Assembly (NCBI GenBank): GCA_964373805.1 | Contig: CAYJWF010000002.1 | Span: forward strand, 13,861-77,860 | Length of the DNA stretch: 64,000 nucleotides | Direction: 5' to 3' | Origin: an uncultured Planctomycetia bacterium | GTDB taxonomy: Bacteria > Omnitrophota > Gorgyraeia > 1-14-0-20-64-10 | In this document: positions 10,561-28,633 of the stretch, in pieces | How the letters are laid out: each line of letters starts with the position of its first letter | How positions within the stretch are numbered: the first letter of the stretch is position 1 | Made by a program: the position numbers and the translations under genes | The notes under the pieces: generated by a model | What the model saw: the letters and a program-made list of their open reading frames with translations, nothing else | Told to the model about the DNA's origin: nothing | Database searches by the model: none

Positions 10561-11670
10561 TTATGCCTCTCGATCCAAAACGGCGTAGCGGCGCTCTTGG
10601 AATGTTTGGTAAGTAACCGTTCCCACGTTGAGGAACCGCCCTTCTTCAAGCCCCGCGGCCCGAATGAGGGCCTCCAGGCCGGCTGCCCCAGCTACGGAAA
10701 GATCCTCTACGGCTTTACGGGAGGCACGGATGATGGCGTAAGGCTCCACCCCATTGAGCTTCCAGGCATTGACTTCCTCTAGGCCAACCATCTGGGCATT
10801 CAAGAGAATGACATCCCCGTTGGCTACAGCGAGTTTCGGCATATCCTCTTCTTGGGGCCTGGGGCTCTTCGACAGGGGAATCCGCTTGACCCCAAGTGGA
10901 AGCACCCCCTCCAGTCCTACCTGATCAAACAGAAACCGCCCCTCAAGCTCTCCGGCTTGTTCCACATCAACGTAGATCTTGTTCCCCCTGTGGAGGACTC
11001 CCCCGTTGCCCTCAATCGCCCGAACCAACTCCCCCTCCTCCAGGCCGGCCCTGAACGAAGTCGAAGAGCCGGTGGGGGAATGAAGCTTGGCCAATAATCG
11101 CTGGACCGTTTCGGACTTCAGGAGGTCGCCCAAAAGCGAGGGGATCTGACCGGGATTGTTGGTACTTCTCGAATCGATAAGTACATCCGAATATCCTAGA
11201 TTATCTGGATGAGATTGTCTCACCTGTTTTCTCTCCAACACAGAAACGTAGTACCGCTGCGGCTCATCATCCCAGCGGCGGGCTTGCCCTACAACAATCC
11301 GTATCCCCGCCGGGTTACCCTGTTCCGCCACCCTGGGATTCCAAATCCAAACGCCCCAATCTTCCCCTCGCCCACCTTGTTCACCCTTTACCGGTACCGC
11401 AGATACCCTGGATCGCAATCCTAGATAGTCACTCAGAGACCTGTTCACCACCGACTCGATTTGATTCCGGTCAGGAGAGCTCGCCACACGGCCACCGACG
11501 ATCCCCTCCTCCAAGCCGGCGCGGACCTCTTTTCGAACCTCTTGGGAAGCGGGACCTTGAATGCGTAGGGCAAAGGAAGGAGATGGCAGGGTGAGGCTTA
11601 AGATGAGGAGAAACGCAACGATTCGGGGAGTGGGGTTATCCATCGATTCGTCGGGTTGCCTGCTGACCAT
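10561..11670 (-). CDS. Hypothetical secreted protein (signal peptide), function unknown
   Basis: 369-aa ORF; N-terminal hydrophobic segment VAFLLILSLTLPSPSFA; good coding statistics; no confident domain call. Confidence 0.5.
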   Translation of the reverse strand: MVSRQPDESMDNPTPRIVAFLLILSLTLPSPSFALRIQGPASQEVRKEVRAGLEEGIVGGRVASSPDRNQIESVVNRSLSDYLGLRSRVSAVPVKGEQGGRGEDWGVWIWNPRVAEQGNPAGIRIVVGQARRWDDEPQRYYVSVLERKQVRQSHPDNLGYSDVLIDSRSTNNPGQIPSLLGDLLKSETVQRLLAKLHSPTGSSTSFRAGLEEGELVRAIEGNGGVLHRGNKIYVDVEQAGELEGRFLFDQVGLEGVLPLGVKRIPLSKSPRPQEEDMPKLAVANGDVILLNAQMVGLEEVNAWKLNGVEPYAIIRASRKAVEDLSVAGAAGLEALIRAAGLEEGRFLNVGTVTYQTFQERRYAVLDREA

Positions 11671-13875: not shown

Positions 13876-15483
13876 TTACACGTCAAAATACAGATAGAAC
13901 TCGTACGGATGGGGTCGGAGCTTGACCTTCGGAATCTCCTGCCGCTTGTACTCGAGCCACACCTCGATCACGTCCTTGGTGAAGACGTCCCCTTTAAGGA
14001 GAAAGGCGTGATCCCTTTCCAAGGCGTCTAAGGCTTCTTCCAGTGAACCGGGCACCGTTGGGATCTTGGCCGCTTCCTCCCGGGAGAGCTCGTAGGTGTT
14101 CTTATCCAGAGGCTGACCCGGATCGATCCGGTTCTGAATCCCATCCAACCCGGCCATCAGCATGGCTGGGAAGGCGAGGTACGGGTTGCAGGAAGGATCC
14201 GGCGGCCGGAACTCCACCCGCTTCGATTTCGGATAGTCCACGTAGACCGGGATTCGGCAGGCGGCCGACCGGTTCCGGGCCGAATAGGCCAAGTTCACCG
14301 GCGCCTCGTAACCCGGCACCAACCGCTTGTACGAGTTGGTTGTGGGGGCCGCGAAGGCCAGGATCGAAGGGGCATGCTTGATCAGGCCCCCGATGTACCA
14401 CTTGCACAGCTGGCTGATCAAGGCATAGCCGTTCTTGTCGTAGAAGAGGTTCTTGCCCTCTTTCGCCAAGCTCTGGTGGGTATGCATCCCCGATCCGTTG
14501 TCGCCGTAAAGCGGCTTCGGCATGTAGGTGGCCACCTTGCCGTGCTTGCGGGCCACATTCTTGATGATGTATTTCAACATCAACAAGTGGTCGGCCATCT
14601 TGGTTAAGGAGGCGTACCGCATGTCGATCTCCGCCTGACCGGCCGTCGCCACTTCGTGATGGTGCTTCTCCACCGGAACCCCAGCCGCCCGTGCCGTATT
14701 CATGATTTCGCTGCGGATGTCCTGGAAAGTGTCGTGGGGGGGCACCGGGAAGTAACCCTCCTTGAATCGGGGTTTGTAGCCTAAGTTCGGCTTCTCCTCC
14801 CGACCGGAGTTCCACTCCCCCTCGATTGAATCCACATAGTAATAGCTGGAATTTTCCGTGGAATCGAAGCGGATGTCGTCAAAGATGAAGAACTCCGGTT
14901 CCGGCCCCCAGTAGCTGACGTCGGCGATGCCGGTCTTCTTAAGATACAACTCCGCTTTCTTCGCGATGTAGCGGGGATCCCGACTGTACGGCTGTTTGGT
15001 CAAAGGGTCAAAGATGTCGCAAACCAAGCTTAAGGTGGGAACGCCACACACCGGATCCAGCACCGCGGTGGAAGGGTCTACGAAAAGGTTCATGTCCGAC
15101 TCCTGGATCTTCTGGAACCCACGAATCGAGGAGCCATCGAATCCAATCCCATCCACCCAAATCCCTTCTTTGGAATTCTCGCTCAGTTCCGAGACCGGAA
15201 TCGAGAAGTGCTGCCACATCCCAGGCAGGTCGTTAAACTTAAGATCCACGACCTGGATGTTGTGGTCCTTGATCAGTTTAAACAGGCGCCGAATCTCGCT
15301 TTCGTCCACTTTCGCCGGACCGGCGGCCGCCTGGGTTTGAGTCGTCCCTTCAACACGCGCTCGGCTTCTTGCCATCGTTTCCTTTACCCTTTCCCTTTCT
15401 AGGGTCATTGTACCACCACGCCCTTGTGCCATGTCGCTCGTTCCTCCACTGTTCTTACTTCGGGTTACGGTTGATCGAGCCAT
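13876..15483 (-). CDS. glnA: Glutamine synthetase type I (GSI-beta-like); annotated start gives ~65-aa N-terminal extension, true start may be downstream
   Basis: [59 protein letters not shown]; adenylylation-loop region present. Confidence 0.8.
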
Positions 15484-15503
15484 AAAAAGGCAGCCTCCTA
15501 TAA

Positions 15504-15561
15504 GTTTTTGGCTGCGCCAGCAAACAGTCCAGAAAAGTCCCGAGCGGAGCGAGGGGCCTCC
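15504..15561 (+). repeat. Family-1 ~58-bp repeat element, intergenic copy (glnA-glnK spacer)
   Basis: GTTTTTGGCTGCGCCAGCAAACAGTCCAGAAAAGTCCCGAGCGGAGCGAGGGGCCTCC. Confidence 0.75.
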
Positions 15562-15562
15562 C

Positions 15563-15901
15563 CTATAACGCCGCTTCGCTCATCTCCCCGGTGCGAATCC
15601 GGATGACCTCCTCCACGGTTGAGACGAAGATCTTCCCATCCCCCACCGAACCGGTCTTGGCGGCCTCTTGGATCGCGCGGACGATTTTGCTGACGTCCTT
15701 GTCGCTCACCACAATCTCCAGCTTAACTTTCGGCAACAGTTCCACCCGGTACTGCTCCCCTCGCCACTGCTGAACCACCCCTTTCTGCTTGCCGTGGCCT
15801 TCCACTTCGGAGATGTTGAGGCCCGGGAAGCCCACCTTTTCTAAGGCCCGACGAACTTCATCCACCTTCTCAGGACGAACGATGGCTTCGATCTTCTTCA
15901 T
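15563..15901 (-). CDS. glnK: Nitrogen regulatory protein P-II
   Basis: 112 aa [20 protein letters not shown]...GDGKIFV; overlaps amtB start by 4 nt (glnK-amtB pairing). Confidence 0.9.
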
Positions 15902-17268
15902 CGTTTGCTCCCTTCATGAACCATCTCCCCATGGCTATCGTTGCTCCGCGCCACCGCCGTAGCATAGGAGTAGGAGGGCTTCCGAATCACAAATTCTGGG
16001 TAGGCGGCATTGCCGTGTTCCCCCACATCCAGACCGGCAATCTCCTCTTGAAGAGGAACCCGGATCCCCACGGTAACCTTCAAGATGGCCCAAGCTAAGA
16101 CAGAGATCAGAAACACATACAATCCCACACCAAACACCCCTGTGGCTTGGGCGGCCAAAAGCTTAGATCCTCCCCCAAAGAAGAGGCCGTTACCGGTCGT
16201 TCCAGGGACAAACATATCCTGCGCAAAAAGGGCCAGCGACAAGGTACCCCAGACGCCGTTGACCAGGTGAACCGAGATCGCTCCCACCGGATCATCCACC
16301 CGCATCCGGTCAAAGGCCATGACCGACACGACGACCAACGCCCCGGCCACCAAACCAATGAGGAGAGAACTTTCGACACTGACGAAAGCGCAGGGAGCCG
16401 TGATGGCCACGAGGCCGGCCAAACAGCCGTTTAACGTCATCCCGAGATCCGGTTTGCCCAATAAAAACCACGAGGTGACCGTAGCGCTTAAAATCGCCGC
16501 TGCGGCCGCGGAGTTCGTGGTGATGCAGATCCGGGAAATCGCCTCCGGATCGGCCGCCATGGTAGAACCTGGGTTAAAGCCAAACCACCCCAGCCACAGG
16601 ATGAAGGTCCCGAGGGTGGCTAAACTCAAATCGTGCCCAGGGGTTGGGCTAATGCGGCCGTTGGGCCCGTACTTCCCGAATCGTGGCCCCAGCATCAAGG
16701 CCCCAGCCAAAGCGGCCCATCCTCCCACCGAGTGGACCACCGAGGAGCCGGCAAAGTCCCACATCCCGGCCTTGGCCAACCACCCCCCTCCCCAAATCCA
16801 GTGACCGGTCACCGGATAGATCAAGATCCCCATGACAAAGGAGAAGAGGATGAACGAAAGATACTTGATCCTTCCTCCCACCGCTCCGGAGACGATCGTC
16901 GCCGCCGTCCCAGCAAAGACCAACTGGAAAAAGAACTTGGCGAACAAGGGGACGCCGGTCCAGTTCATCGAGCCGTAAACCCCTTTGTAGGCCGCGCTGG
17001 TGGCCGGGGAGTTATCGGCCCCGTGAAGACCGAACAACCCCTGCATGCCAAACCACGGGGTACCATCCCCAAACATGAGACCAAACCCCAAGAACCAGAA
17101 GGCGATCGAGGTCACGGCGAACACCACGAAGTTCTTGGAGAGCACATTGACACAGTTCTTGGACGGCTGAAAACCAGCCTCCACCATCGCGAAGCCGGCG
17201 TTCATCCAGAAAACCAGCATCGCCGTCAGCAATGTCCACATCGTATCCATCATCACCTTTGGATCCAT
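15898..17268 (-). CDS. amtB: Ammonium transporter
   Basis: 456 aa, ~11 TM; Amt signature regions (GAVAERIRF-like GAVGGRIKY, HGxxGxxG). Confidence 0.9.
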   Translation of the reverse strand: MDPKVMMDTMWTLLTAMLVFWMNAGFAMVEAGFQPSKNCVNVLSKNFVVFAVTSIAFWFLGFGLMFGDGTPWFGMQGLFGLHGADNSPATSAAYKGVYGSMNWTGVPLFAKFFFQLVFAGTAATIVSGAVGGRIKYLSFILFSFVMGILIYPVTGHWIWGGGWLAKAGMWDFAGSSVVHSVGGWAALAGALMLGPRFGKYGPNGRISPTPGHDLSLATLGTFILWLGWFGFNPGSTMAADPEAISRICITTNSAAAAAILSATVTSWFLLGKPDLGMTLNGCLAGLVAITAPCAFVSVESSLLIGLVAGALVVVSVMAFDRMRVDDPVGAISVHLVNGVWGTLSLALFAQDMFVPGTTGNGLFFGGGSKLLAAQATGVFGVGLYVFLISVLAWAILKVTVGIRVPLQEEIAGLDVGEHGNAAYPEFVIRKPSYSYATAVARSNDSHGEMVHEGSKR

Positions 17269-17283
17269 GCTTTAACCTCCTTA

Positions 17284-17342
17284 GAGAACGCTTCTCTCGG
17301 GGACACTTCCTTCTCAGAGAAGTGTCCTTTTAAGAAGCGTTC
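17284..17342 (-). promoter_or_regulatory. Nested inverted repeat (AGAACGCTTCT...GGACACTTC / GAAGTGTCC...AGAAGCGTTCT) between porin gene and amtB; terminator/attenuator candidate
   Basis: Two concentric perfect inverted repeats seen in sequence, directly upstream of the amtB RBS AAGGAGG. Confidence 0.35.
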
Positions 17343-17350
17343 TTGTTACC

Positions 17351-18607
17351 TTAAAAATAGACGTACGCCGCCACCCCCACCGTGTGCTGCGTGGTATCAG
17401 ACCTGAAAGTGTTCCGGCTGGTGAAGAAATTCTCCGAAGTTTTATCGAACCTATACTCCGGTCGAATCAAAAGGTTGAATCCCTTGCCTAAGGCCATCTT
17501 ATAATTCAGTGTCGCCGTCACCCCGTAAAGGGTCTGATCCACGCCGCTGGCAAAGCCGTCCTGGTCGTGGAGGTATTCTAACCGAACAGCCGGCTCCAGA
17601 TGGTCTGTTAGCTGATACCGTACCACGCCGGCCAATCCGTGCCAGACCGCGTTTTGGGTATTGGAGGCCAGCGCATTCTCCTCCAAGCCAACATCTCCAT
17701 ACAACAAGAGGTTCAGCTTTGGAATCGGCGTGTTGAAGAAGGCCTGGAAATCCACGAGGTGCCGGAGGTTATTCTGGATATTCCGCTGCTCCGGACCCAC
17801 CAGATAGTTTAGGTACAAATTAAACCAGGAGCAGGGCAGCCACCCGATGGAAGGTCCTACGGTAATCCCCCGATTATTGTCACCCGTAGTCACGTTCCAA
17901 CCCCGCAGAAGGTACAGCTCCGTATAGAACTTGTCGCTCCAAGGATAATTCAAACGGACCCCCGTGTCTTGGAAGGGGATCGCGTAGCTGTAGAGGAAAC
18001 TTCGAGAATGATTGTTGTTCTTGATCGTCTCAATGGTCTCCCCCCCGATGTGGGTGACGAATTTGCCTGCATCGATTCTTACGCCCTTGCCCACGGGAGC
18101 CACCCAGCCCACCGAGGCATGGGAGATCCATTTGTCGGCGTGGTGAACCACCCCTTCTCCCAAAGCCCCCTGAATCGTGTCGTAGATGATCTCCGGGGTA
18201 TCGCCCCAGTTGACATCCAGTTTGAAACCGGCCCCGCCCCACTCTCCTAAGGTCGGAACCTTCTCCAGCTCCACCTCCACCAAGGAGAGGCCCAACTCAT
18301 CGTTCTGGATGTCGAATGTTCGACCCTCGATGGTGACATTGGTGGCCTTCACCACCGAGGAGCTTTGATTGGCATTCACCGTGCTCCGAGAGGGCTGGTT
18401 GACGTTGTGCACGAAGTGGGTGTCGAGCCACCCGCGGATCTTGATTTTCCTCAACCACTCCAGACCGGTCCACTCACCGGCATCCTTGGTGGCCGCCTCG
18501 GTCCAGATTCCATTGACCTCTGCCGCGTGGGCAAATGGGAATGGAACCACCAAGACGCCGATGATCGCTACGAACAGAAGAAACCTTAGAGAAAATGCTT
18601 GAAACAT
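17351..18607 (-). CDS. Outer-membrane beta-barrel porin (signal peptide, C-terminal aromatic residue)
   Basis: 418 aa, N-terminal signal FLLFVAIIGVLVVPFPFAHA, alternating amphipathic strands, ends ...AAYVYF. Confidence 0.6.
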   Translation of the reverse strand: MFQAFSLRFLLFVAIIGVLVVPFPFAHAAEVNGIWTEAATKDAGEWTGLEWLRKIKIRGWLDTHFVHNVNQPSRSTVNANQSSSVVKATNVTIEGRTFDIQNDELGLSLVEVELEKVPTLGEWGGAGFKLDVNWGDTPEIIYDTIQGALGEGVVHHADKWISHASVGWVAPVGKGVRIDAGKFVTHIGGETIETIKNNNHSRSFLYSYAIPFQDTGVRLNYPWSDKFYTELYLLRGWNVTTGDNNRGITVGPSIGWLPCSWFNLYLNYLVGPEQRNIQNNLRHLVDFQAFFNTPIPKLNLLLYGDVGLEENALASNTQNAVWHGLAGVVRYQLTDHLEPAVRLEYLHDQDGFASGVDQTLYGVTATLNYKMALGKGFNLLIRPEYRFDKTSENFFTSRNTFRSDTTQHTVGVAAYVYF

Positions 18608-18822: not shown

Positions 18823-21378
18823 CTAAGAAACAGGCGCAGGTGCCGGGCCCCGTTCAAAGAGGTACCGTAAAAGATAGAGAGAATCTTCGGGGCCGATTTT
18901 TCCATCCCCATTGACATCCGCCGCCTCCGGGATGGGCGGGGCTGGAATCCGCTGAGCCAGGTAGCTGTTGATGAAGGCTGCGTCCGAGATGTTGACCTCT
19001 CCGTCTGCGTTGGAGTCTCCCCGGATGAAGCCCACCGGGGCGGGCCCGCGTTGAAAGATATAGGCCAACAGGTAACGTACATCGGCTAGGGTGATCCTCA
19101 AGTCCCCGTTTGTATCGGCCGAAGCTGGAGCCGCCAGGGTAGGCTTGCGCCCCATAAGATGGAGCTGGATCCAGACGCAGTCGGTGATGTTGATCCGGCC
19201 ATCCCCGTCCACATCCCCCCGAACATATTCCACCGGGGCCTGTCCGCCCTGGAACAGATAGCGCAACAGGAGCTGAAAGTCGCCTGCCGTAATCTTGCCA
19301 TCTCCATCGACATCGGCGCGGGGAGTGGCCGGTGGGCGCCCTCCACGAAACAGATAGTTCATGATGAAGATGGGATCCGCGATGTTGATCCGCCCATCCC
19401 CATTGGCATCGCCCCGCAGGGGTCCACGAGTGACGTTCCTCACCGTGATGAGAACCGTCTCTTGGGTATCTCCCCCTTTACCATCGCTGGCTTCCAACAA
19501 AACGATCACCGTCCGGATCCCCTCCTTGGGGCTGACAAAAGAAAAGGGAGGGGGCCATTGAAAGGTCCCGGCTCCACTCGCCGGGTCCGCCGTAAAGGTT
19601 GCCCCGATCTTCTCCAACGGATCCCCGTTGGCCAGCCGAGCCGTCAACGTCAGACGATCCCCATCCGGATCGGTGGCCTGTACCGTAAACCGCAAGGTCT
19701 GGCCTTCATCGACCAACTGCCGAGGAATCGGCTGGATTTTCGGGGCAGCATTCGGCCGCGGAGCCAGCGGAAATACGCCCGATCGCTGTGCATCGTGTCG
19801 ATCCTGCGGCCACGGGAGTCGGTCAGGGTCATACCGCCCTGGCAGATGGAAGGCGTTCATGGACTGAGAAACCCCCTGAGGGACAACGATCTCAACGGTT
19901 CCATCTCGATCCAGATCGACGATGGAGGGGGCGGCCATCCAGCGGATAGCGGAGACTCCCAGTAGAACATCTCCGCTCAGTGGAAGAGGAAAACCGTTGA
20001 CCGGACTCCCATCCTCGTGCCAAGCGGCTAAGGTATACTTCACTGAAAGCAGTCCAGCCAGATTAAAGAATTCAGTGGCTAAGATCTCCAACCTCTGATC
20101 CCCATCGATATCCCCCACAATGGGGCCCTCCAAGATCCCCGTTGCACCGATCCCATCGGCTTCCATCTGGACGGGCCAACCGTCACGGACATTCCCCTGC
20201 GGATCGAACACCGTTAGGGTTACATTCTCATCTCTCTGTAGATACCGATGGGCCGACGAGCCAACCACCAACTCCGGCTGTCCATCCCCCTCAAAATCGG
20301 CCAGGGCAATCACCGGAGACCGGCCGGTCGGTCTCGGCCACCCTGGCATCGCTTCTCCATTCCCGCGCAATACGGAAACGAGCCCTATCCTCTCGCTTTC
20401 CGAGGAAACCCCTCCCAGCACAATCTCCATTACGCCATCTTTGTCCAGGTCACCCAGGACGGGTGGCCTTGTAGTAGAGGAAGTCATCCGAGAGACCGGT
20501 TGGTTAAGGAGAACCTTTCCCTGTTGATTGAAAACCACCAAGGAAACGGAAAACGGCCCAGGTGTCAGCTGCCTGGAGACCACCAATACCAGCTCCGGCG
20601 CTTGATCCCCTCGCACATTTCCTATGGCTACCCCATGACCTGTAAAAAGGTCATCCCCTGGGATCATCACCGGCCATCCAGCCAGGGGGGTACCGGAGGC
20701 GTCCCATACATAGACGAAGACGCCGTTTTCTCCAGCCGGACGAAACCGCGTCGAGGTGACCACGACAACCTCCAGGTCACCATCGCCATCGACATCCGCG
20801 AGGGTTTGATACGGTGGAGGAAATCGATCGGATCGGTCCAACCGGATGGGCCAGCCAGGCAACAGAGTTCCATCCTGCCTCCAGGCATGAACCGCCGAAG
20901 TTATGATCTGGGGAGACTCCTCTCGCCAAAAAGCGGTCTGCACAATCTCCAACCGTCCATCCCCGTCCAAGTCGCCCAACAAAGGGGAGGAATCGGTCAG
21001 GGCGTTTAACCCAAAGCCAAGGGGGGTTCCGTCGATCGGTTGAGGCCACCCCGGATGCGGCTGACCGTCCCATCGGTAGACCGCTACGACTGGCCTGCCG
21101 AATGGCTGCGGCGGGAAGATTTCTGGCGGGAAGCCCTCTGCGATATTGCCCTCCACCACAACCTCCGGATAACCGTCCCCATCCAGGTCGGCAATCGTTG
21201 GAGAATTTCTCACCCAAGGATGCTGGATCTGGCCCCCCTGTTGGATCGTCACCCGCACCGGCCAGCCGGGAAGCTGCTCCGGCGGCTCCGCGGCAAAAGC
21301 TGGAGTTAAGAACGAAAGAGTCCCAAGAAACAACCCTAGAGCGAAACTTCTCTTCTCGATGATCGCGGTCCGCTTCAC
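18823..21378 (-). CDS. Secreted FG-GAP/VCBS beta-propeller protein with cadherin-like Ig domain and six C-terminal type-I dockerin-like Ca-binding repeats
   Basis: Signal peptide; seven DxDxDGxxE blades (DLDGDGYPEVVV, GDLDGDGRLEIV, ADVDGDGDLEVVVV ...); six DxNxDGxIxxxD repeats each followed by LxYLF (GDANGDGRINIADPIFIMNYLF ... ADVNGDGKIGPEDSLYLLRYLF). Confidence 0.7.
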   Translation of the reverse strand: MKRTAIIEKRSFALGLFLGTLSFLTPAFAAEPPEQLPGWPVRVTIQQGGQIQHPWVRNSPTIADLDGDGYPEVVVEGNIAEGFPPEIFPPQPFGRPVVAVYRWDGQPHPGWPQPIDGTPLGFGLNALTDSSPLLGDLDGDGRLEIVQTAFWREESPQIITSAVHAWRQDGTLLPGWPIRLDRSDRFPPPYQTLADVDGDGDLEVVVVTSTRFRPAGENGVFVYVWDASGTPLAGWPVMIPGDDLFTGHGVAIGNVRGDQAPELVLVVSRQLTPGPFSVSLVVFNQQGKVLLNQPVSRMTSSTTRPPVLGDLDKDGVMEIVLGGVSSESERIGLVSVLRGNGEAMPGWPRPTGRSPVIALADFEGDGQPELVVGSSAHRYLQRDENVTLTVFDPQGNVRDGWPVQMEADGIGATGILEGPIVGDIDGDQRLEILATEFFNLAGLLSVKYTLAAWHEDGSPVNGFPLPLSGDVLLGVSAIRWMAAPSIVDLDRDGTVEIVVPQGVSQSMNAFHLPGRYDPDRLPWPQDRHDAQRSGVFPLAPRPNAAPKIQPIPRQLVDEGQTLRFTVQATDPDGDRLTLTARLANGDPLEKIGATFTADPASGAGTFQWPPPFSFVSPKEGIRTVIVLLEASDGKGGDTQETVLITVRNVTRGPLRGDANGDGRINIADPIFIMNYLFRGGRPPATPRADVDGDGKITAGDFQLLLRYLFQGGQAPVEYVRGDVDGDGRINITDCVWIQLHLMGRKPTLAAPASADTNGDLRITLADVRYLLAYIFQRGPAPVGFIRGDSNADGEVNISDAAFINSYLAQRIPAPPIPEAADVNGDGKIGPEDSLYLLRYLFERGPAPAPVS

Positions 21379-21522
21379 TGGTTTTCTCCTCTTTTCATGG
21401 GTGGCTGCGATGTAAACCTTTGTAAGTGGGATTTACTCTTATACTCTTCTTTAAGTGGCCCGATGCTACTCTATTTTAATATGGATGTCAAATAAATAAT
21501 AAAACCGGCTGGATAGGGAGAT

Positions 21523-22347
21523 CTAGGCGTAGTGCCGAAGCAGGCTCTTTACCTTAGGAAACTTCAAATGCTCAAGCTCATTTGGATCCAGCACGAAACG
21601 CTCCAGTTCCAAGCGCACCGCTTTCCAATCCACTGCTTCGAGTTCATCCTCCACCCACCCGGGAAACTCTCGCTCCTTAATCTCACTCCCACCTCCCTGC
21701 GTCTGGCGAATGGCGTTGTTGAGCAGTTTCAGGTTGGGCATGACACCCCGCCCCAGATACCAGACCAGATCGTAAACATCCCTTCCCTTCCGGTAGCGAC
21801 GAAAGAACAAGGCGTGGAGCTTCAGCGCGAAAAGCGAAGGCAGATCAAAGACGGTCACCGCGTAAGAAATGGGGGTCGTCACCAGCTCCACCTCGGTCTT
21901 TCCTCCCTTAGGGGGACGGGTGTCGATCTCCCACTTGAGCGTGAGTTTCTGCTCCGGCAGGTCCGAGAGATTGAACTCCTTCAATAAACCGGGGAATCGG
22001 CAATCGGCCGTCCGGACCGTCTTCTCTTTCCGGGGATAAACCTCGCATCCCAGCCCTTGAAGCTTAAGATCCTTGGCTACCTTCTCAAGGAGGGTCTGAA
22101 ACTCAAACCCTTCCGAATGGAGGAGGGAAAAATCCAGATCCTCCGAATAGCGATTCGTCCGATACAGCAGCCTCAAGGCGGTCCCACCGGTAAAGACAAG
22201 GTTTTGAAAGGCTCCATGACGGGACAGGCTCTGCAGCGTGAGATGTTGGAGGATCTCCGCGAGGGCCAGACGCTTCAAGTGAGGCTGAGGAACCCGGTCC
22301 AACTCTCGACGGATCAGATCCTTCAACGCAGCACCTCCTGGATCCAC
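21523..22347 (-). CDS. AbiEii/AbiGii-family nucleotidyltransferase toxin (type IV TA / abortive infection)
   Basis: 274 aa with FTGGTALRLLYRTNRYSEDLDF motif diagnostic of DUF1814/AbiEii. Confidence 0.75.
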   Translation of the reverse strand: MDPGGAALKDLIRRELDRVPQPHLKRLALAEILQHLTLQSLSRHGAFQNLVFTGGTALRLLYRTNRYSEDLDFSLLHSEGFEFQTLLEKVAKDLKLQGLGCEVYPRKEKTVRTADCRFPGLLKEFNLSDLPEQKLTLKWEIDTRPPKGGKTEVELVTTPISYAVTVFDLPSLFALKLHALFFRRYRKGRDVYDLVWYLGRGVMPNLKLLNNAIRQTQGGGSEIKEREFPGWVEDELEAVDWKAVRLELERFVLDPNELEHLKFPKVKSLLRHYA

Positions 22348-22952
22348 CGCCTGACCACGGAGATCAACCTTTGGGATCCGAATCGCTCTGCACAGGCCCT
22401 GACCTTCTGGGGATCCAGCCCCTCACAATTCTGAAAACGATAAGACTCTTTGAACACCGCCCCCTCCATAGCTGAAAGTCGGGAGAGATTTAAATACAGA
22501 AAGTCAACCACCGCCTTCTCCGGTGTAGCCACCAGAATGGAAAGCCCTCCCGCCGCCGAGATCGACTCGAACCCTCCGTAACCGGCCGGAAGCAGATGCT
22601 GATAAATAAAGATCCCAAACTCATTCTCGAAACGACAGGTCTTCCGGGGGGTGATCGACGTTGTCGCCGCGACAAACTCGGGGATCATCCCATGATACGC
22701 CAAGGCGGACTCCAGGCTCACATAGGACGGCAGATAGATCTGATTGGCGAGGTAAAAGCGAGACGGCTCCACCTGCCGATCCTCGTCATTAAGGACATAG
22801 AGCCCCTTGCGCAACGGCCGGATAAGCCCCTTCTTTTTCCAACCCGCCAGTTGGACCCGAAGCGTTCCCACCTGGTCCGTCAGAGAAACCAGCATGCTGG
22901 ACGAAAAGAGGGGGTACCTCCTCATCTTCCGACGAAACTCGTTGTATTTCAT
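22323..22952 (-). CDS. AbiEi-family antitoxin/transcriptional regulator
   Basis: 209 aa; YVSLESALAYHGMIPE core of AbiEi; overlaps abiEii by 25 nt in the canonical order. Confidence 0.7.
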   Translation of the reverse strand: MKYNEFRRKMRRYPLFSSSMLVSLTDQVGTLRVQLAGWKKKGLIRPLRKGLYVLNDEDRQVEPSRFYLANQIYLPSYVSLESALAYHGMIPEFVAATTSITPRKTCRFENEFGIFIYQHLLPAGYGGFESISAAGGLSILVATPEKAVVDFLYLNLSRLSAMEGAVFKESYRFQNCEGLDPQKVRACAERFGSQRLISVVRRWIQEVLR

Positions 22953-23045
22953 TTCATTATACTTTTCTATAATCTACAGAAATGATACCATCCCCGGCCT
23001 TCTTCATCAAGCGCTCTTAGCACACGCAGATTATTTCGTGGGTTT

Positions 23046-26000
23046 CTATCCCAATCCGTCCGGGGTGGGATCGGCGCCGGGATTCGGATACGGCGGGACC
23101 GGCGGTGGGCCGCCTTTGAATAGGTGGCTCACCAAACGGAGAGCATCCGTGACATCGATCCATCCGTTATCATCGACATCGCAGGGATCTAAGGAAGGGA
23201 CCTTCTGCCCCCGGTACAGATAAAGCAGGATCGTCACCACATCGGAGATGTCCACCCGACCATCCCCATTGGCATCGCCGCGGATAAACGACGGTTGGGC
23301 AGTCACTGTAACCGTTACTTCTTCGGTATCGCTGAAGTCGCTCGGATCCATGACCCGGAAGAAGAAGGTGTTGGTGCCCACCTGGTCTGCCCCCGGCATC
23401 CATCGGAGAATTTTCGTCAACGTACCGGGCTCGGAACGGACCGTTTCCAAGCTTGCCCCTCTAGGTAGTGGGGAAGGACGTGTCGCCAACACCAATGGAT
23501 CTCCATCCGGATCGGTGGCGGAAATGGGGAATTGGAGCGTCTCCCCAACACGAGCCGTTCTAGAACCGATCGGCTCTAGAACGGGTGAACGACTAGAAGG
23601 CCCGAACTCAGACACGTAGACCTGTCCCGTCAAAGTCATCCGGCTACTCACACCTATCCAGGCCACTCGATTACCGGAAAGGGAAGGCGCTGCATTAATC
23701 TCAAACAACGAAGAGATAACCCGGTGCGTCTCCCCTGTCGTCAAATCCTGGAGGAACGTAAGAGGAGGGATTCGGAATTGACCCCAAAAATCTTCCCAGA
23801 CCACCTGATTCCCTGCAACATCCGGACGGATCTGGGTAGCCGGGTGAGAGGTAAGCTGCCGTTCCCTCCCAGTTCGCAAGTCGTAGAGAAAAAGATCAGC
23901 GGGATCAGGATCAAGCGCATCCTGTTCCCGGTGATCCTCGTAGATGATCCAGTCACCCCAGATCACTGGTCTAACCTGGTCAGACGGATGGTCGGTAATC
24001 CGACGTTCCGTATCGGTAGACAGATCGTAGAGGTAAACGTCGACGTTTCCGCCTTCCGCATGAGAATAAACGATTCGGTCGCCGGACACCCCAACCTGAG
24101 GCCGCGGGTTTGCGAAGCCTGGATCCTCAAAGACAGGTTTCTGCAGACGCTCCCTGAACGTGGTTAAATCGTAGACCTCTAGAATGTGATCGACTGTCAC
24201 ATAAACGAGCCAATGACCAGACATAACAGGAGGCGAATCAAAGGGTAGATTCCCTGCGATTCCTCCCTGATTCACGATGCGCTCCTGCTTGGTGTTGAGG
24301 TTGAATAGATGAATCCTGCTTTGCTGGCCTAACCAAACAATCCAATCTCGCCAGATGGTTGGAGGCGATAACCAAGTGAGATCGGAGGAGATTGACCGCT
24401 TTGTGTCGGTAGGTAGGTCATAGAGATAAAGATGGTTCGAGGTGGGGTCTCTATCCCCTGTGGTTTCTTCCCCCCAAACGATCCGGTCTCCTGAGATCGA
24501 AGGCCCCCACTTCTGTTGGGGGCCGTCCGTAAGCCGTCTGGGGGTAACCCATTCCAAGTAGTACTGCGCTACCTCTTGGAACCGTTGTCCACTTGATGTC
24601 GTAACTGAAAGGAGAACCAAGCTAGGGCCATCCGGTAGATCTCCGATCAGCCAATTTCCCAACACCCCATCCACCACGGGGGTAAACACCGGGCCCCCCA
24701 TCGATCGCCACGGTCCTACGGGGATATCGGTCTGATAGAGCAACTCATACTGCTGAAACCCGGGTCCTGCCGCTGTTCCGGTAACCATTACGGAGCGATC
24801 CCGTCGGCTGAGGATCGCCTTATCTTGCGGGCTGGTGAGGTATACCTGTGGGACCGAATCGATCGTCAGGGCCCGAGCAGCGTTAACGCGTCCAAATCCG
24901 GTCTCCCAATCAAAGCCTGGGGTCCCTACATCATCCGCAGAAATCTGCAATACCCGTCGAACCTCTTCATTGGAAAACTCGGGATGCCTGGACAAGACCA
25001 ACGCGCACACACCGGCCACATGGGGAGCCGCCATGCTGGTCCCTCGAGCCCTGTAATAGGATCCCCCTACCACCATCCTGCCCGCAAAGGCTGGACCACA
25101 ACTTTCCCGATAAATATCGGTTCCCATAGCGCGGAGGGACAGAATCGATGGGGTCACTTCCGAACAACCACCTCCTGACTCACCCCCCGGAGCTGCTACA
25201 TCGATCTCTGCTCCTAGGTTAGAGAAACTGCTCCTCTGATCCAAGTGGTCCAGGGATGCCACCGAGATGACCTCGGATGCGTTCTGGGGACTGAAGGCAG
25301 CTACATCGTCCCGACTATTTCCACCCGCAAATACCAATACCAAGCCGTTGGCGTAGGCCAGACGTATAGCTTCCATAACGAGCGGATTCTCTGGGCACCG
25401 ACCCATACATCCCCAACTGTTGTTGATCACATCCGCTACCCCGTGGTTCACGGGGTAGCGGATACCCTGTGCCAGAACACTGGAAGTGGAGATGCCACGA
25501 TCATCTAGTACCTTAACCGGCATAACCTTTGCCCGGGGCGCCACCCCAACGACCCCGATCCCATTGTTAGCTACTGCAGCAATCGTACCGGCTACATGGG
25601 TCCCGTGTCCATTAAGGTCCATGGGATCCTTATCCCCGTAAATCACATCCCAACCAAACATGTGATCACCAATCTCATTCCATTCCACCTGCCTGTTGCC
25701 ATTAAGATCTACATCGTCCAGATCAACGACTCCATCCCCATTGCGATCCGGAACGATCCCAGGATCCACCCAGACGTTCTTCCAGATGTCCGGATGGTTA
25801 TAGTCCAAGCCGGTATCGACGACAGCCACCACGATCCCTTCCCCTTGGGAAATCTTCCAAGCTTCGTCGGCTTTGATCTTCTTTAATCCCCACAGATCCC
25901 CGTACTCTTGGCCCCAGGCCCCGGTTGACCAGACCCCATCTTGATCTGGATCGACATACGTATCGTTGGGAAGGGTATCCGGGAAGGCTTGGATCTTCAT

Positions 26001-26651
26001 AATGTAGTCTGGCTGAGCGTATTCTACTGCCGGATCATCTTGATAGGTACGCACCATCGATGGGATATCGGTCGATTCATCCACCTTAAGGAGATACGTC
26101 CCATCCAAAGAGGGAACCACCGCATCCTTCGGGGCACGCTTCTGCCGACGCTCTAAGCGGGCTATGAGTCCTTCCTGGCCTTTAATCCGGGAATCCAACT
26201 CCGCTTTCTCCTTCTCGATCCGAGTCTGGTATTCCTTGGATTCTGGGGAATCCTTATCCTTCCACCAGTACCAGCTCGGATGCTCCTGACCCTCCAGACC
26301 TGCTCGCTTCTTCTTTAACTCCTGCAACCGTTCCTGGGCGGTCGGCTCCTTCGGAAAAACCTCTGTCACCGAGCTCACACCAAATCGCTGATTCAACGGC
26401 TCGATCGCCGAAAGGTCGTACCCTTCCTTGACCTTGACGATGATCTGACCAGGGGCATAGGTAGGAGCTGTCGGCCTGCCCTCCTCTACTTCCTGATGGG
26501 AATCAGGTTCCCCCTCTACCCCGCCAAAGGCAGAAGGCTGACAAAGGATGAGGGAAAAAACCAAAGAAACGGCTAGGGCTGTGTGCTTATGGCCCATTGC
26601 CAAAATGCGATCCCCCTTTGTCGCCATGGTACTTCTATAAACCCGATTCAC
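23046..26651 (-). CDS. Secreted subtilisin-like serine protease (S8) with N-terminal I9 propeptide, beta-propeller, cadherin-like Ig domain and C-terminal dockerin-like repeat
   Basis: Catalytic triad motifs VAVVDTGLDYNHPD, HGTHVAGTIAA, GTSMAAPHVAG; repeated DRIVW/LYDL blades; C-terminal GDANGDGRVDISDVVTILLYLY...DVDDNGWIDVTDALRLVSHLF. Confidence 0.85.
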   Translation of the reverse strand: MNRVYRSTMATKGDRILAMGHKHTALAVSLVFSLILCQPSAFGGVEGEPDSHQEVEEGRPTAPTYAPGQIIVKVKEGYDLSAIEPLNQRFGVSSVTEVFPKEPTAQERLQELKKKRAGLEGQEHPSWYWWKDKDSPESKEYQTRIEKEKAELDSRIKGQEGLIARLERRQKRAPKDAVVPSLDGTYLLKVDESTDIPSMVRTYQDDPAVEYAQPDYIMKIQAFPDTLPNDTYVDPDQDGVWSTGAWGQEYGDLWGLKKIKADEAWKISQGEGIVVAVVDTGLDYNHPDIWKNVWVDPGIVPDRNGDGVVDLDDVDLNGNRQVEWNEIGDHMFGWDVIYGDKDPMDLNGHGTHVAGTIAAVANNGIGVVGVAPRAKVMPVKVLDDRGISTSSVLAQGIRYPVNHGVADVINNSWGCMGRCPENPLVMEAIRLAYANGLVLVFAGGNSRDDVAAFSPQNASEVISVASLDHLDQRSSFSNLGAEIDVAAPGGESGGGCSEVTPSILSLRAMGTDIYRESCGPAFAGRMVVGGSYYRARGTSMAAPHVAGVCALVLSRHPEFSNEEVRRVLQISADDVGTPGFDWETGFGRVNAARALTIDSVPQVYLTSPQDKAILSRRDRSVMVTGTAAGPGFQQYELLYQTDIPVGPWRSMGGPVFTPVVDGVLGNWLIGDLPDGPSLVLLSVTTSSGQRFQEVAQYYLEWVTPRRLTDGPQQKWGPSISGDRIVWGEETTGDRDPTSNHLYLYDLPTDTKRSISSDLTWLSPPTIWRDWIVWLGQQSRIHLFNLNTKQERIVNQGGIAGNLPFDSPPVMSGHWLVYVTVDHILEVYDLTTFRERLQKPVFEDPGFANPRPQVGVSGDRIVYSHAEGGNVDVYLYDLSTDTERRITDHPSDQVRPVIWGDWIIYEDHREQDALDPDPADLFLYDLRTGRERQLTSHPATQIRPDVAGNQVVWEDFWGQFRIPPLTFLQDLTTGETHRVISSLFEINAAPSLSGNRVAWIGVSSRMTLTGQVYVSEFGPSSRSPVLEPIGSRTARVGETLQFPISATDPDGDPLVLATRPSPLPRGASLETVRSEPGTLTKILRWMPGADQVGTNTFFFRVMDPSDFSDTEEVTVTVTAQPSFIRGDANGDGRVDISDVVTILLYLYRGQKVPSLDPCDVDDNGWIDVTDALRLVSHLFKGGPPPVPPYPNPGADPTPDGLG
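23059..23097 (-). repeat. 39-bp segment at 3' end of S8 protease gene (encodes PPYPNPGADPTPD), duplicated at 27881..27919
   Basis: 38/39 identical to 27881..27919. Confidence 0.7.
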
Positions 26652-26705
26652 CCGATTTTATTCCAGGATTATCCTTGAAAAGTGGCAGGTCGACTTTAGA
26701 CCCCT

Positions 26706-26939
26706 TTAACCCAAAAGCTGACGGAGATCTTTGGCTGTCAACTGCACACCGCGTAAGATGGCTCGGAGGGTTCCTGGTTTGATTGGCTTCGAACCGTGGA
26801 GGATAATCGTTGCCCGGCGGGATAGGTCTCCCTTATGTCTCATGAGCACGTGAGACCCTCGTTGACGGAGAACGATAAAACCGGCTTTCTCAAGAGCACG
26901 AACAACTCGCTGGCCAGGAACTTGTGGGAGGTCGCTCAC
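26706..26939 (-). CDS. hicA: HicA-family mRNA interferase toxin
   Basis: 77 aa; GFIVLRQRGSHVLMRHK...GTLRAILRG typical HicA. Confidence 0.7.
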   Translation of the reverse strand: MSDLPQVPGQRVVRALEKAGFIVLRQRGSHVLMRHKGDLSRRATIILHGSKPIKPGTLRAILRGVQLTAKDLRQLLG

Positions 26940-27175
26940 GCAGCGACACGAACCTCCCGCAGGAAGACATCGGACGATGGGATCGGTTGATGGTCTGCCT
27001 CTAATCCTCCCAGGTAGAGAACGATGGCCTCTTTAATGTTAGCAAGGGCTTCTTTCTCGGTTTCCCCTTGACTGGCACAGCCAGGAAGTGCCGGTACATA
27101 GACCGAAAAACCGCCTTCCGACTCTGTCTGAAAGACCACACCGAATCGCCGAATCACGGATTTCACCTCCTTCAT
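26936..27175 (-). CDS. hicB: HicB-family antitoxin
   Basis: 79 aa; FSVYVPALPGCASQGETEKEALANIKEAIVLYL (HicB/UPF0150 fold); overlaps hicA by 4 nt. Confidence 0.7.
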   Translation of the reverse strand: MKEVKSVIRRFGVVFQTESEGGFSVYVPALPGCASQGETEKEALANIKEAIVLYLGGLEADHQPIPSSDVFLREVRVAA

Positions 27176-27356
27176 TACAGTTTACCACAGACAAACCCAT
27201 CAGGAGGTCTGTTGACACAAAGATTGCCTCGGTCCCGCTTCGGCTAAAGCCTCGCGGTCCCTCGCAATGACTTAAAGGGGCTACAGCGAGTCGAGGAATT
27301 GGGTGCCTTTCGTTAAAGGACGGTGGACAAACTTCTCTAGGTTCCTGGAACCTTTT

Positions 27357-27530
27357 TTAGAATCCAACTCGCAAAGCGCTGGGCAGTCTCGCAGCACGCA
27401 TGGGCCTCCTCTGCTGAGGGCAATGCTCCAACTGCTGGATACCGTTCAATCGCCGAGCTGCTCGATGGGGATCCTGCTGCGCTTTCTGCAGCCACTCGGC
27501 AGGATAACCGGAAGGCTTACGACTTGGCAT
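27357..27530 (-). pseudogene. HEPN-domain toxin remnant (57 codons, truncated/frameshifted) downstream of MNT gene
   Basis: ATG overlapping MNT 3' end; encodes PAEWLQKAQQD...LNGIQQLEHCPQQRRPMRAARL resembling PF05168 HEPN N-terminus (AEWLxKAxxDL...FHAQQAAEKALKALL) then stops; a second frame continues with EEAHACCETAQRFASWILKK. Confidence 0.35.
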
Positions 27531-27843
27531 AGAGAACTTTACCGGACTGCAAAATATCCATCAGGAACTGGTCGCCTAAGGCCAGACGCCGGCTAAGTTC
27601 TTGAGGGGTCAGCACGATCGGATCAAAGGGGATACCTCGCCTTAAAGGCGAGACGAGCTGGCGGACGGTCGCCAACCGCTGATGAAACGTCTGCGGCGTC
27701 CGTTTGACGATCAAAAGGTCGATGTCGCTTTCAGCCTTTTGCCGACCCGTGGCAAACGAGCCAAACAGAACGATCCGTTCCGGCTGATAACGGGTCTTTA
27801 AAACCTCCCGAATGCGCTGTATCACTCGCTTGGACTTATTCAT
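27517..27843 (-). CDS. Minimal nucleotidyltransferase (MNT) antitoxin of HEPN/MNT module
   Basis: 108 aa; IVLFGSFATGRQKAESDIDLLIV (GS...DxD polymerase-beta-like NTase motif). Confidence 0.7.
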   Translation of the reverse strand: MNKSKRVIQRIREVLKTRYQPERIVLFGSFATGRQKAESDIDLLIVKRTPQTFHQRLATVRQLVSPLRRGIPFDPIVLTPQELSRRLALGDQFLMDILQSGKVLYAKS

Positions 27844-27880
27844 GCTACCTTCTATTTTACCACAAGCTTAATTGAGGTTA

Positions 27881-27919
27881 TCCGGCGTGGGATCGGCGCC
27901 GGGATTCGGATACGGCGGG
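27881..27919 (-). repeat. Orphan 3' fragment of a dockerin-type gene (…PPYPNPGADPTPDNLN*) duplicating the S8 protease 3' end
   Basis: 38/39 nt identity to 23059..23097; open only ~17 codons (TGA immediately upstream). Confidence 0.7.
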
Positions 27920-27924
27920 GCTGG

Positions 27925-27950
27925 GGGTCAGACCCCGAGGGGTCTGACCC
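27925..27950 (-). terminator. GC-rich hairpin GGGTCAGACC-CCGAGG-GGTCTGACCC downstream of response-regulator gene
   Basis: 10-bp perfect stem; T-run only on the plus-strand side, so terminator function for the minus-strand gene is uncertain. Confidence 0.3.
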
Positions 27951-27958
27951 TTTATAAT

Positions 27959-28633
27959 TTACAGGGATTCGAGGAACTTGTAGCCGACGTTGCGGACGGT
28001 GTCGATGAGGCTGGCGTACTTGGGGCCCAGTTTGGCCCGGAGGCGGCGGATGTGGACATCCACGGTCCTCGTACCCCCTATGAAGTCGTAGTCCCAGACC
28101 TGGTTAAGGAGCTGATCGCGGCTGAAGACCCGGGTGGGGTGGGTGGCCAGGAATTTCAAGAGCTCAAACTCCTTGTAGGTGAGCTCCAACGGTTCGTCTT
28201 TTAAGGTCACCTCGTATTGATCGACGTCCAATCGGAGATCCCCAATCTCAATGCCGGTCCCTGGGGCAGCGTGATTGAGGCGCTTCAGCACAAACCGAAT
28301 TCGAGTCTCCAACAGCTCTGGATCCGCTGGACCTACGAGGAAATCCTCCAACCCGCTGATCGATGGAAGCTCCCTAAGATGATCTGGCTTCAAGAGGACC
28401 AAAAGTGGCAGATCTTTCGCCGGTGGTTGGCTCCGCAGCCGAGCCACCAGCTCCGCCAATCGGCCAACGGCTGTCGCATCGAGAAGCCCAAAGTTGAACC
28501 GGTCCTTGACCTCTTCCAGCCGGTCCAATTCGTCAACGGAAAAGGCGCTCACCCGAAAACCTCGCCGAACCAGGTAGCTCTTCAGCCGCTTTAAGCCGGC
28601 CTCCTCAGAACCGATCAACAGTAAGGTTTCCAT
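27959..28633 (-). CDS. OmpR/PhoB-family winged-helix response regulator with atypical receiver domain; orphan (no kinase adjacent)
   Basis: C-terminal wHTH LTYKEFELLKFLATHPTRVFSRDQLLNQVWDY...TVDVHIRRLRAKL; receiver lacks the usual N-terminal DD acidic pair (LLLIGSEE). Confidence 0.7.
   Translation of the reverse strand: METLLLIGSEEAGLKRLKSYLVRRGFRVSAFSVDELDRLEEVKDRFNFGLLDATAVGRLAELVARLRSQPPAKDLPLLVLLKPDHLRELPSISGLEDFLVGPADPELLETRIRFVLKRLNHAAPGTGIEIGDLRLDVDQYEVTLKDEPLELTYKEFELLKFLATHPTRVFSRDQLLNQVWDYDFIGGTRTVDVHIRRLRAKLGPKYASLIDTVRNVGYKFLESL

Follow-up and report, generated by a model that had tools for sequence, protein, structure and literature searches.

Dockerin modules on a secreted subtilase and a secreted FG-GAP propeller protein encoded within 64 kb of an uncultured diderm bacterium

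The 64-kb stretch of DNA analysed here (contig CAYJWF010000002.1, positions 13,861 to 77,860, of assembly GCA_964373805.1; hereafter the window) encodes two secreted proteins, an FG-GAP β-propeller protein (ORF A) and a subtilisin-like protease of peptidase family S8 (ORF B), both of which end in calcium-binding repeats that we have little doubt are real dockerins. An earlier note, made from the sequence letters, had proposed two such proteins, and the minus-strand open reading frames (ORFs) lie exactly where it had placed them, with Pfam Dockerin_1 scores of 115.5 bits in ORF A and 24.6 bits in ORF B. As the best overall explanation, which in our judgement has about an even chance of being right, we propose a protease and a propeller docked at the cell surface by their dockerins, with the receptor encoded elsewhere. 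That the dockerins serve as surface or partner docking tags seems to us fairly probable, and a cohesin as the docking partner somewhat less so, falling a little short of even. For both proteins we infer where they reside, that they dock and what kind of receptor they use, and docking to a cohesin is, taken as a whole, plausible but unproven.

The repeats had been called diagnostic of the dockerin fold, and family score, calcium-ligand pattern and, for ORF A, predicted fold agree with this. Dockerin_1 was matched in ORF A at an E-value of 1.2e-33 over three modules, with the best stretch at amino acids (aa) 656-708, and in ORF B at 2.9e-5 over one module, by a narrow margin above the gathering cutoff of 22.9 bits. 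In all eight dockerin loops the ligands are D1, N/D3, D/N5 and D12, each loop leading into a hydrophobic helix with the pattern xxxLLxYLF, and the calcium ligands of the ORF A loops are kept in an ortholog of 70% identity (P0002). A loose calcium-loop motif searched in six frames of the 64 kb gave 9 matches, all of them in the two ORFs (the eight dockerin segments and one loop in the S8 domain), and a hidden Markov model of the four dockerin modules found nothing further in the window. Pairwise identity is 33-51% among these modules, 32-50% with those of P0008, P0009, P0195 and P0204, and ~30% with the dockerin of CelS.

A generic EF-hand or thrombospondin type-3 (TSP3) nature of the repeats, which the earlier note had itself raised as the contrary case, was rejected: the EF-hand families stayed below their Pfam cutoffs (EF-hand_7, 25.1 bits against 30; EF-hand_1, 20.6 against 25.4), and no TSP3 family appeared down to E 0.1. 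Dockerins led the sequence search of the PDB (8x39, 3.9e-10; CelS 2mte, 1.5e-7; range to 1e-4), with calmodulins ranking behind them at about 3e-4. For the fold, a first AlphaFold run on the immunoglobulin (Ig)-like domain and three dockerins of ORF A, with a 3-sequence alignment, gave a confident Ig-like domain and dockerins with a predicted local distance difference test (pLDDT) of 40-65. A second run on aa 652-851, with an alignment that included 21 multi-dockerin homologs, modelled the C-terminal repeats as dockerins at a mean pLDDT of 80.8, forming three units of helix, short helix and helix. The top 32 matches of this model in a Foldseek search of the PDB were all dockerins, headed by the double dockerin of the Clostridium thermocellum S8 protease Clo1313_0689 (E 1e-4); single type I dockerins matched with target template-modelling scores of 0.70-0.84 and root-mean-square deviations of 1.1-2.4 Å, whereas EF-hand proteins appeared only at E > 2.

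ORF A has a basic n-region, then a hydrophobic core whose Kyte-Doolittle value over 11 aa peaks at 2.03, and an AxA site; in ORF B the core reaches 2.83 at aa 26. As read by eye and from hydrophobicity, and not by a dedicated predictor, both N-termini are of Sec type, in line with the secretion proposed before, and neither contains a lipobox. The large N-terminal part of ORF A matched the Pfam families FG-GAP_3 (108.3 bits, 2.8e-31) and FG-GAP (63.4 bits, 1.6e-17) and contains eight calcium-loop motifs, at aa 64, 136, 195, 254, 310, 361, 423 and 488; it is thus a predicted FG-GAP/VCBS β-propeller within the expected seven to eight repeats. The Ig-like domain that follows matched Big_9 (26.6 bits, cutoff 23.6), was modelled with a pLDDT of about 85-89, and had Ig-like adhesin, titin and cadherin domains as its best PDB fold matches. 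A hidden cohesin or X module had been a candidate for this domain and was discarded on those generic matches.

The dockerin array of ORF A consists of six loop-plus-helix segments, starting at aa 657, 689, 722, 755, 788 and 821 with a period of 32-33 aa. By DNA and protein similarity they fall into two classes, odd (A1, A3, A5) and even (A2, A4, A6), and the array is therefore a triplicated two-segment module; in the predicted structure the pLDDT is low where module 1 meets module 2, which backs the pairing (1,2)(3,4)(5,6). The six repeats that had been counted in ORF A are thus segments, amounting to three dockerins, while the single dockerin counted in ORF B stands, as one module of two segments. 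Since the DNA identity among the ORF A segments is only 56-61%, their duplication must be old. A recent DNA-level tandem duplication was rejected on the same identities, the repeat finder having seen only short degenerate matches of calcium-loop codons. ORF A is identical to the NCBI protein P0001, the 70% ortholog shares its architecture, and a search against one genome per species returned a sole weak match, from Verrucomicrobia (37% identity over 68 aa).

ORF B is, by its sequence, a subtilase of family S8 with an intact catalytic triad. Peptidase_S8 (PF00082) was matched at 194 bits (4e-57), the triad is complete (D279 in VVDTG, H349 in HGTH, S539 in GTSMA), and the domain found thermitase (2.8e-40) and Ak.1 protease (about 1e-40) in the PDB. 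The NCBI record of the protein begins at Met9 (ATG 26627) and gives 1193 aa. Upstream of the catalytic domain lies a region matching the Fervidolysin_NPro-like family (32.7 bits, cutoff 21), and downstream a propeller recognised by the NCBIfam model TIGR04275, beta_prop_Msarc (105.4 bits, cutoff 85), with weak TolB-like matches. The Ig-like domain exceeded the cutoffs of both Big_9 (29.5 bits, cutoff 23.6) and He_PIG (27.1 bits), and the dockerin after it is 33-46% identical to the modules of ORF A. Unrelated to the dockerin, an extra EF-hand-like calcium loop, DRNGDGVVDLDD followed by VDLNGN, lies at 25713-25748 (aa 302-313) in the S8 domain between the catalytic Asp and His, and is probably a calcium-dependent stabilising insert.

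In both proteins the Ig-like domain stands directly N-terminal of the dockerin, and the two Ig-plus-dockerin regions are homologous (36% identity over 172 aa, E 2e-24), which bears out the cadherin-like Ig domain that the two had been said to share, with Big_9 recognised in each. At E <= 1e-3 a profile of this cassette matched 56,868 representative proteins, of which 1,098 remained at E <= 1e-30. At least 20 of the best 150 matches, in proteins of 0.9-5.8 kaa (thousand amino acids), bear the contiguous Ig-dockerin dyad at the extreme C-terminus, and the 17 such proteins examined proved to be arrays of Ig domains (Big_9, He_PIG and cadherin-like) closed by a dockerin of the window subtype (consensus 'DVVYLxNYLFxxGPAP'). 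Given this abundance and the Ig-array carriers, the cassette is common and typical of adhesin-like surface proteins. Table 1 lists the features of both proteins and the further genes considered below.

Table 1. Features of ORF A and ORF B, toxin-antitoxin genes of the window, and cohesin genes in relatives' loci (positions in window coordinates, save where a locus is named).
Feature	Position	Strand	Extent	Basis
ORF A, secreted FG-GAP propeller + Ig-like + triple dockerin	18823..21378	minus	851 aa	ORF list, Pfam
ORF A signal peptide, probable cleavage AFA|AE	21292..21378	minus	aa 1-29	judged by eye, hydrophobicity
ORF A FG-GAP/VCBS β-propeller region, eight DxDxDG..E repeats	19774..21261	minus	aa ~40-535	Pfam, motif
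ORF A Ig-like (Big_9 / cadherin-like) domain	19444..19752	minus	aa 543-645	Pfam, AlphaFold
ORF A dockerin module 1, segments 657 + 689	19225..19416	minus	aa 655-718	Pfam Dockerin_1, Ca ligands, model
ORF A dockerin module 2, segments 722 + 755	19027..19221	minus	aa 720-784	Pfam, ligands, model
ORF A dockerin module 3, segments 788 + 821	18838..19023	minus	aa 786-847	Pfam, ligands, model
ORF B, prepro-subtilase (S8) + β-propeller + Ig-like + dockerin	23046..26651	minus	1201 aa from GTG	
ORF B N-terminus with signal peptide, core aa 24-42, probable cleavage SAFG|G	26523..26651	minus		by eye
ORF B fervidolysin-like N-terminal prodomain region	26007..26456	minus	aa ~66-215	Pfam
ORF B S8 catalytic domain	24891..25844	minus	aa 270-587	Pfam, PDB, motifs
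ORF B β-propeller, six to seven 'G[DN]x[IV]VW' repeats	23616..24554	minus	aa ~700-1012	NCBIfam
ORF B Ig-like domain	23301..23585	minus	aa 1023-1117	Pfam
ORF B dockerin module, segments 1126 + 1158	23106..23282	minus	aa 1124-1182	Pfam, Ca ligands
AbiEii	21523..22347			
AbiEi	22323..22952			
HicA	26706..26939			
HicB	26936..27175			
MNT nucleotidyltransferase	27517..27843			
Cohesin + PEP-CTERM gene, locus L008	5799-6416		~205 aa	
Cohesin + PEP-CTERM gene, locus L011	10001-10618		~205 aa	
Cohesin + PEP-CTERM gene, locus L009	10001-10624		~205 aa	

The host is a diderm with lipopolysaccharide (LPS), as the LPS and BamA genes of the window tell. The window encodes LpxC-FabZ, LpxD, LpxI, BamA and a BBP2 porin, and its GlnA, the sole taxonomic marker here, clusters at 90% identity with proteins listed by NCBI under Candidatus Omnitrophota, which makes membership in that candidate phylum probable. 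No carbohydrate-active enzyme was found among the window ORFs scanned; together with the LpxC, LpxD, LpxI, BamA and BBP2 porin genes this agrees with the non-cellulolytic, diderm context that had been proposed for the two proteins. Omnitrophota are uncultured and mostly ultra-small, with a presumed lifestyle of dependence on, or predation of, other cells.

In the mechanism that we favour, ORFs A and B would be exported by the Sec route and their dockerins would fold around Ca2+ after export, to act as non-covalent docking tags that hold the protease and the propeller at the cell surface, possibly side by side. The receptor would be encoded elsewhere, most likely as a cohesin-type β-sandwich protein with an envelope anchor of its own, like the PEP-CTERM-anchored single-cohesin proteins that stand beside dockerin enzymes of other Omnitrophota. 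The ORF A propeller would be a ligand-binding or adhesion module, its triple dockerin allowing multivalent attachment or bridging, and the two proteins would rebuild in trans, by analogy, the fusions of S8, FG-GAP and dockerin common in relatives. The outcome would be a surface protease equipped with a propeller that binds its targets; it might serve extracellular proteolysis, the scavenging of peptides or nitrogen, or an attack on the surface of a host or prey cell.

Homologs of the ORF A propeller give this mechanism part of its footing. Among the best 120, the propeller is fused to S8 in 17 and to a C25 peptidase in three, which points to a working link of this propeller type with secreted proteases. 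The C-terminal modules within the same set include dockerins (11), FlgD_ig domains (11), SLH domains (9) and the C-terminal domain (CTD) of the type IX secretion system (T9SS; 8), and such alternative surface-anchor modules point to anchoring as the task of the C-terminal module. Furthermore, in a locus unrelated to that of the window (L007, 8296-16200), genes for a C25-dockerin, an FG-GAP-dockerin and an S8-dockerin protein are clustered, all three with dockerins of the window subtype and with no cohesin there. This locus also encodes a 328-aa secreted protein without recognised fold that ends in an IPTL-CTERM sorting signal and is, by its position, a candidate non-cohesin receptor for the window dockerin subtype. 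Eight small secreted proteins of 200-245 aa (P0171, P0172, P0185, P0179, P0181, P0184, P0190, P0194) consist of a signal peptide and six evenly spaced dockerin segments, that is, three linker-less modules in the same compact array as at the C-terminus of ORF A, and may be bridging adaptors.

As to a nutritional role, there is a weak hint, by analogy, from the neighbourhood. The ORF A gene is placed between the region of an OmpR-type regulator and a nitrogen-assimilation cluster (BBP2 porin, AmtB, PII, GlnA; 13876-18607), the adjacency of ORF A and BBP2 is conserved in the locus of the 70% ortholog (L006), and in one relative (L011) a fused protease adjoins an Opp peptide transporter. The regulator itself (27959-28633) has a DNA-binding domain as its only Pfam match, with no receiver-domain match at E <= 0.001.

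Real cohesin-dockerin pairs with an envelope anchor do exist in Omnitrophota diderms. In the metagenome-assembled genome GCA_028714115.1, a fused S8, FG-GAP and dockerin protein of 1324 aa adjoins an Opp peptide transporter, and the gene directly after it encodes a 205-aa protein composed of a signal peptide, a Cohesin domain (37.1 bits, cutoff 24.1) and a PEP-CTERM signal (30.1 bits, cutoff 20.7). The NCBI entry for this 205-aa protein reads 'cohesin domain-containing protein [Candidatus Omnitrophica bacterium]'; 34 relatives of it were found. A cohesin plus PEP-CTERM gene likewise stands beside a GH2-dockerin gene in L009 (GCA_041643215.1), and the same pairing of cohesin and dockerin enzyme recurs in four metagenome loci (L021, L022, L024, L025). 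In general this cohesin family of ~205 aa adjoins large dockerin enzymes (S8 with FG-GAP, or GH2 with discoidin), often together with small PEP-CTERM proteins. The dockerins next to these cohesins form a conserved subtype of their own, 'GDCDNNNVVSGVDxAILRAAYG', and this difference in subtype means that the family is not established as the partner of the window dockerins. The cohesin-dockerin surface assembly that the earlier note had envisaged was therefore borne out in one half, several secreted dockerin subunits being encoded, and not in the other, in that the only Omnitrophota cohesin family identified pairs with another dockerin subtype.

Several findings weigh against the docking model. 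First, as had been noted before, no cohesin is encoded in the 64-kb window: Pfam detected none in 29 window ORFs, including a giant ORF of 3114 aa and all ORFs lacking Pfam annotation, and a 16-sequence Omnitrophota cohesin profile and four other cohesins, searched against 936 six-frame window segments, gave E > 0.2 throughout. The same window was searched for homologs of the 328-aa IPTL-CTERM protein of L007 and of the cohesin plus PEP-CTERM protein, with none found (E > 0.2), and contained no PEP-CTERM-like C-terminal tails. Second, Pfam-detectable cohesins were also absent near the window-subtype dockerin genes of the ortholog locus L006 and of L007, L014, L018 and L019, where flanks of about 10 kb were inspected. 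Third, the cohesin-adjacent dockerins of relatives are ~20% identical to the window modules; the window profile gives them no more than 18 bits, their own profile 45-139 bits. Fourth, no cohesin occurs among the top 25 Pfam families of the 17 closest Ig-array carriers of the cassette, and so abundant a cassette on adhesin-like carriers fits a cohesin-independent use. Finally, the dockerin of ORF B barely exceeds the Pfam cutoff and the fold model covers ORF A alone, and ORFs A and B are, judged from gene content, not a conserved pair, B being missing from L006.

From these findings arises the main rival explanation, which we consider a serious possibility, though short of even: the dockerins would be orphans free of any cohesin, calcium-stabilised modules with Ig spacers that bind something else, be it a surface glycan or surface protein on a host or prey cell, the cell's own LPS or exopolymer, or each other. 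Because linked cohesins are so consistently absent, it is nearly as likely as the docking model. Six contexts of the window subtype (the window and the five loci just named) lack a nearby cohesin, while cohesin-linked dockerins in the same phylum directly adjoin their cohesins; the cassette is very abundant, with Ig-array, adhesin-like proteins as its closest carriers. Dockerins of Omnitrophota have also been read as possible adhesins (PMC10066038; bioRxiv 10.1101/2023.11.21.568195). On the other side, cohesins do occur in Omnitrophota, and cohesin-free flanks of ~10 kb say nothing on the remaining genome. In addition, the metagenomic protein P0195 joins a marginal, partial cohesin (25.0 bits) to a dockerin of the window subtype, the one exception in the contexts L016 and L017, which are otherwise without a cohesin. 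Furthermore, to our knowledge every dockerin of known ligand binds a cohesin, and the list of PDB matches agrees, which counts against orphan dockerins.

A second explanation, which we think unlikely but not negligible, is that A and B are functionally unrelated neighbours: a mobile toxin-antitoxin islet would have brought in the S8-dockerin gene, which would lie next to the resident FG-GAP-dockerin gene purely by chance. ORF B indeed lies within a stretch rich in toxin-antitoxin genes (21523-27928), flanked by MNT, HicB/HicA and AbiEi/AbiEii. At the ortholog locus L006 the gene order is LpxI, NadE, response regulator, A-ortholog and BBP2 porin; this locus thus keeps ORF A and lacks the S8, HicAB, MNT and AbiE genes altogether, so that relative to it about 6.4 kb are inserted in the window between the regulator and ORF A. 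A direct repeat of 48 nt, 92% identical with an exact core of 33 nt, brackets MNT, HicBA and S8 at 23059-23106 and 27881-27928, 4822 nt apart. It has only two copies in the window against an expectation of 0, its copy at 23059-23106 encodes the last residues of ORF B, and an independent Logan contig of the same strain (L001) begins inside its core, such that an independent assembly breaks there. The islet with its bracketing repeat looks like an insertion or recombination scar and is possibly variable in the population. Against two unrelated genes stand the homology of the Ig-plus-dockerin cassettes (E 2e-24), the fusion of S8 to this propeller type in 17 of the best 120 homologs, and the renewed clustering of FG-GAP-dockerin and S8-dockerin genes in the unrelated locus L007; moreover, an adjacency made by insertion is compatible with a common docking partner.

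Well below these in probability, and improbable in our view, is the idea that A and B are halves of one S8/FG-GAP/dockerin surface enzyme, a single polypeptide in relatives, rejoined non-covalently on the cell surface through their dockerins of the widespread 'YLFxGGPAP' subtype and a receptor that is not a recognisable cohesin, with the triple dockerin of A as the hub. If true, Omnitrophota and many other uncultured diderm phyla would have a second docking system that works without classical cohesins, possibly for attacking the envelopes of hosts or prey. Least likely of all, and hardly to be expected, is that the C-terminal modules bind nothing and are a calcium-dependent folding or stability element, or a secretion or sorting tag like the T9SS CTD: homologous propellers do bear that CTD at the same C-terminal position, neighbours carry PEP-CTERM or IPTL-CTERM signals, and the extra loop of the S8 domain illustrates calcium-dependent stabilisation in ORF B, but three tandem modules in ORF A, each with both segments, exceed the needs of a tag, the fold closely matches cohesin-binding dockerins, secreted proteins made of three dockerins alone (P0171, P0172, P0185) fit binding or bridging better, and we know of no secretion system that recognises dockerins.

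Elsewhere in the window, the ORF of 3114 aa (36921-46265, minus strand) lies directly upstream of BamA and has AAA_5 (dynein/MoxR-like) and AAA_16 as its sole Pfam matches. Its N-terminus resembles a signal peptide and ends in '...AWALRTQG'; a 369-aa ORF (10561-11670, minus strand) without Pfam match has a similar N-terminus, '...SFALRIQG'. The larger ORF may be related to the large ORFs reported for Omnitrophota. Rfam returned nothing between 17 and 29 kb, and promoter- and terminator-like sites were no more frequent than in shuffled sequence.

Returning to the dockerin proteins, non-cellulosomal dockerins, including S8-dockerin proteins and the dockerins of Omnitrophota, are already published, and the window adds another instance. 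S8-dockerin architectures were catalogued in 2008 (PMC2605481), and multi-dockerin modules, including an S8 double dockerin of solved structure, are treated in PMC12484212; FG-GAP and dockerin occur together in just two papers of the searchable literature. The more novel element is the pairing of PEP-CTERM-cohesins with dockerin enzymes, which is located in relatives, outside the window; the combination of PEP-CTERM, cohesin and dockerin was not found in the searchable literature. With one protease and one ligand-binding propeller, ORFs A and B offer compact examples in which dockerin-tagged surface proteins are tractable, compared with the giant ORFs investigated to date. Should a receptor come to light for the 'YLFxGGPAP' subtype, which is very common, it would account for tens of thousands of metagenomic dockerins that are now orphans.

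The closest known counterpart is Clo1313_0689, the S8 protease with double dockerin of Clostridium (Acetivibrio) thermocellum (PDB 8X39/8X3A; Chen et al. 2024, as cited in PMC12484212), whose first dockerin reportedly prefers the cohesin of a cell-bound scaffoldin, read as anchoring the protease to the cell surface. It resembles the window proteins in being a subtilisin-family protease with tandem dockerins lacking long linkers, and it is the best match of the window repeats both in sequence (3.9e-10) and in fold. However, C. thermocellum is Gram-positive, makes cellulosomes and has many known cohesins, whereas the window host is a diderm with no cohesin found in the 64 kb. The tandem dockerins of Clo1313_0689 sit on the protease, while the window protease has one and the triple array belongs to a separate propeller protein, and in both window proteins, as a further difference, an Ig spacer precedes the dockerins. 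This spacer is reminiscent of the X-module-dockerin dyads of types II and III in that an Ig-like β-sandwich stands directly N-terminal to the dockerin, and the two recur as one cassette in both window proteins and at the C-terminus of many others, but no homology to X modules was seen and none is among the top 50 PDB fold matches of the window Ig domain.

A second comparison is with the non-cellulosomal dockerins on giant ORFs of Omnitrophota (Seymour et al. 2023, PMC10066038; West-Roberts et al. 2023, bioRxiv 10.1101/2023.11.21.568195; bioRxiv 10.64898/2026.06.07.730766), which probably come from the same phylum, carry multiple copies of PF00404 on extracellular proteins and have a proposed role in adhesion. 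These giants are thousands to tens of thousands of residues long and combine dockerins with TSP3, discoidin and other repeats, whereas the window proteins, at 851 and 1201 aa, are of ordinary size and each carry a defined cargo, a propeller or a protease. For Candidatus Stygibacter (Cloacimonadota), a cellulosome-like complex degrading proteins and polysaccharides has been proposed (Williams et al. 2021, PMC8542988). It too belongs to a diderm, non-cellulolytic candidate phylum and has S8/S53 and C25 peptidases with signal peptides and C-terminal dockerins, and the pair of S8 and C25 dockerin proteins is found again in L007; in contrast to the window organism, for which none was identified, it possesses a scaffoldin of 3,755 aa with tandem cohesins and a T9SS-type CTD. 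Finally, the dockerin enzymes and PEP-CTERM-cohesins of other Omnitrophota (GCA_028714115.1, GCA_041643215.1, L021, L022, L024, L025) share S8, FG-GAP and dockerin modules with ORFs A and B within the same phylum, but unite protease and propeller in one protein of 1324 aa where the window has two, use the other dockerin subtype and, unlike the window, keep the cohesin gene immediately adjacent.

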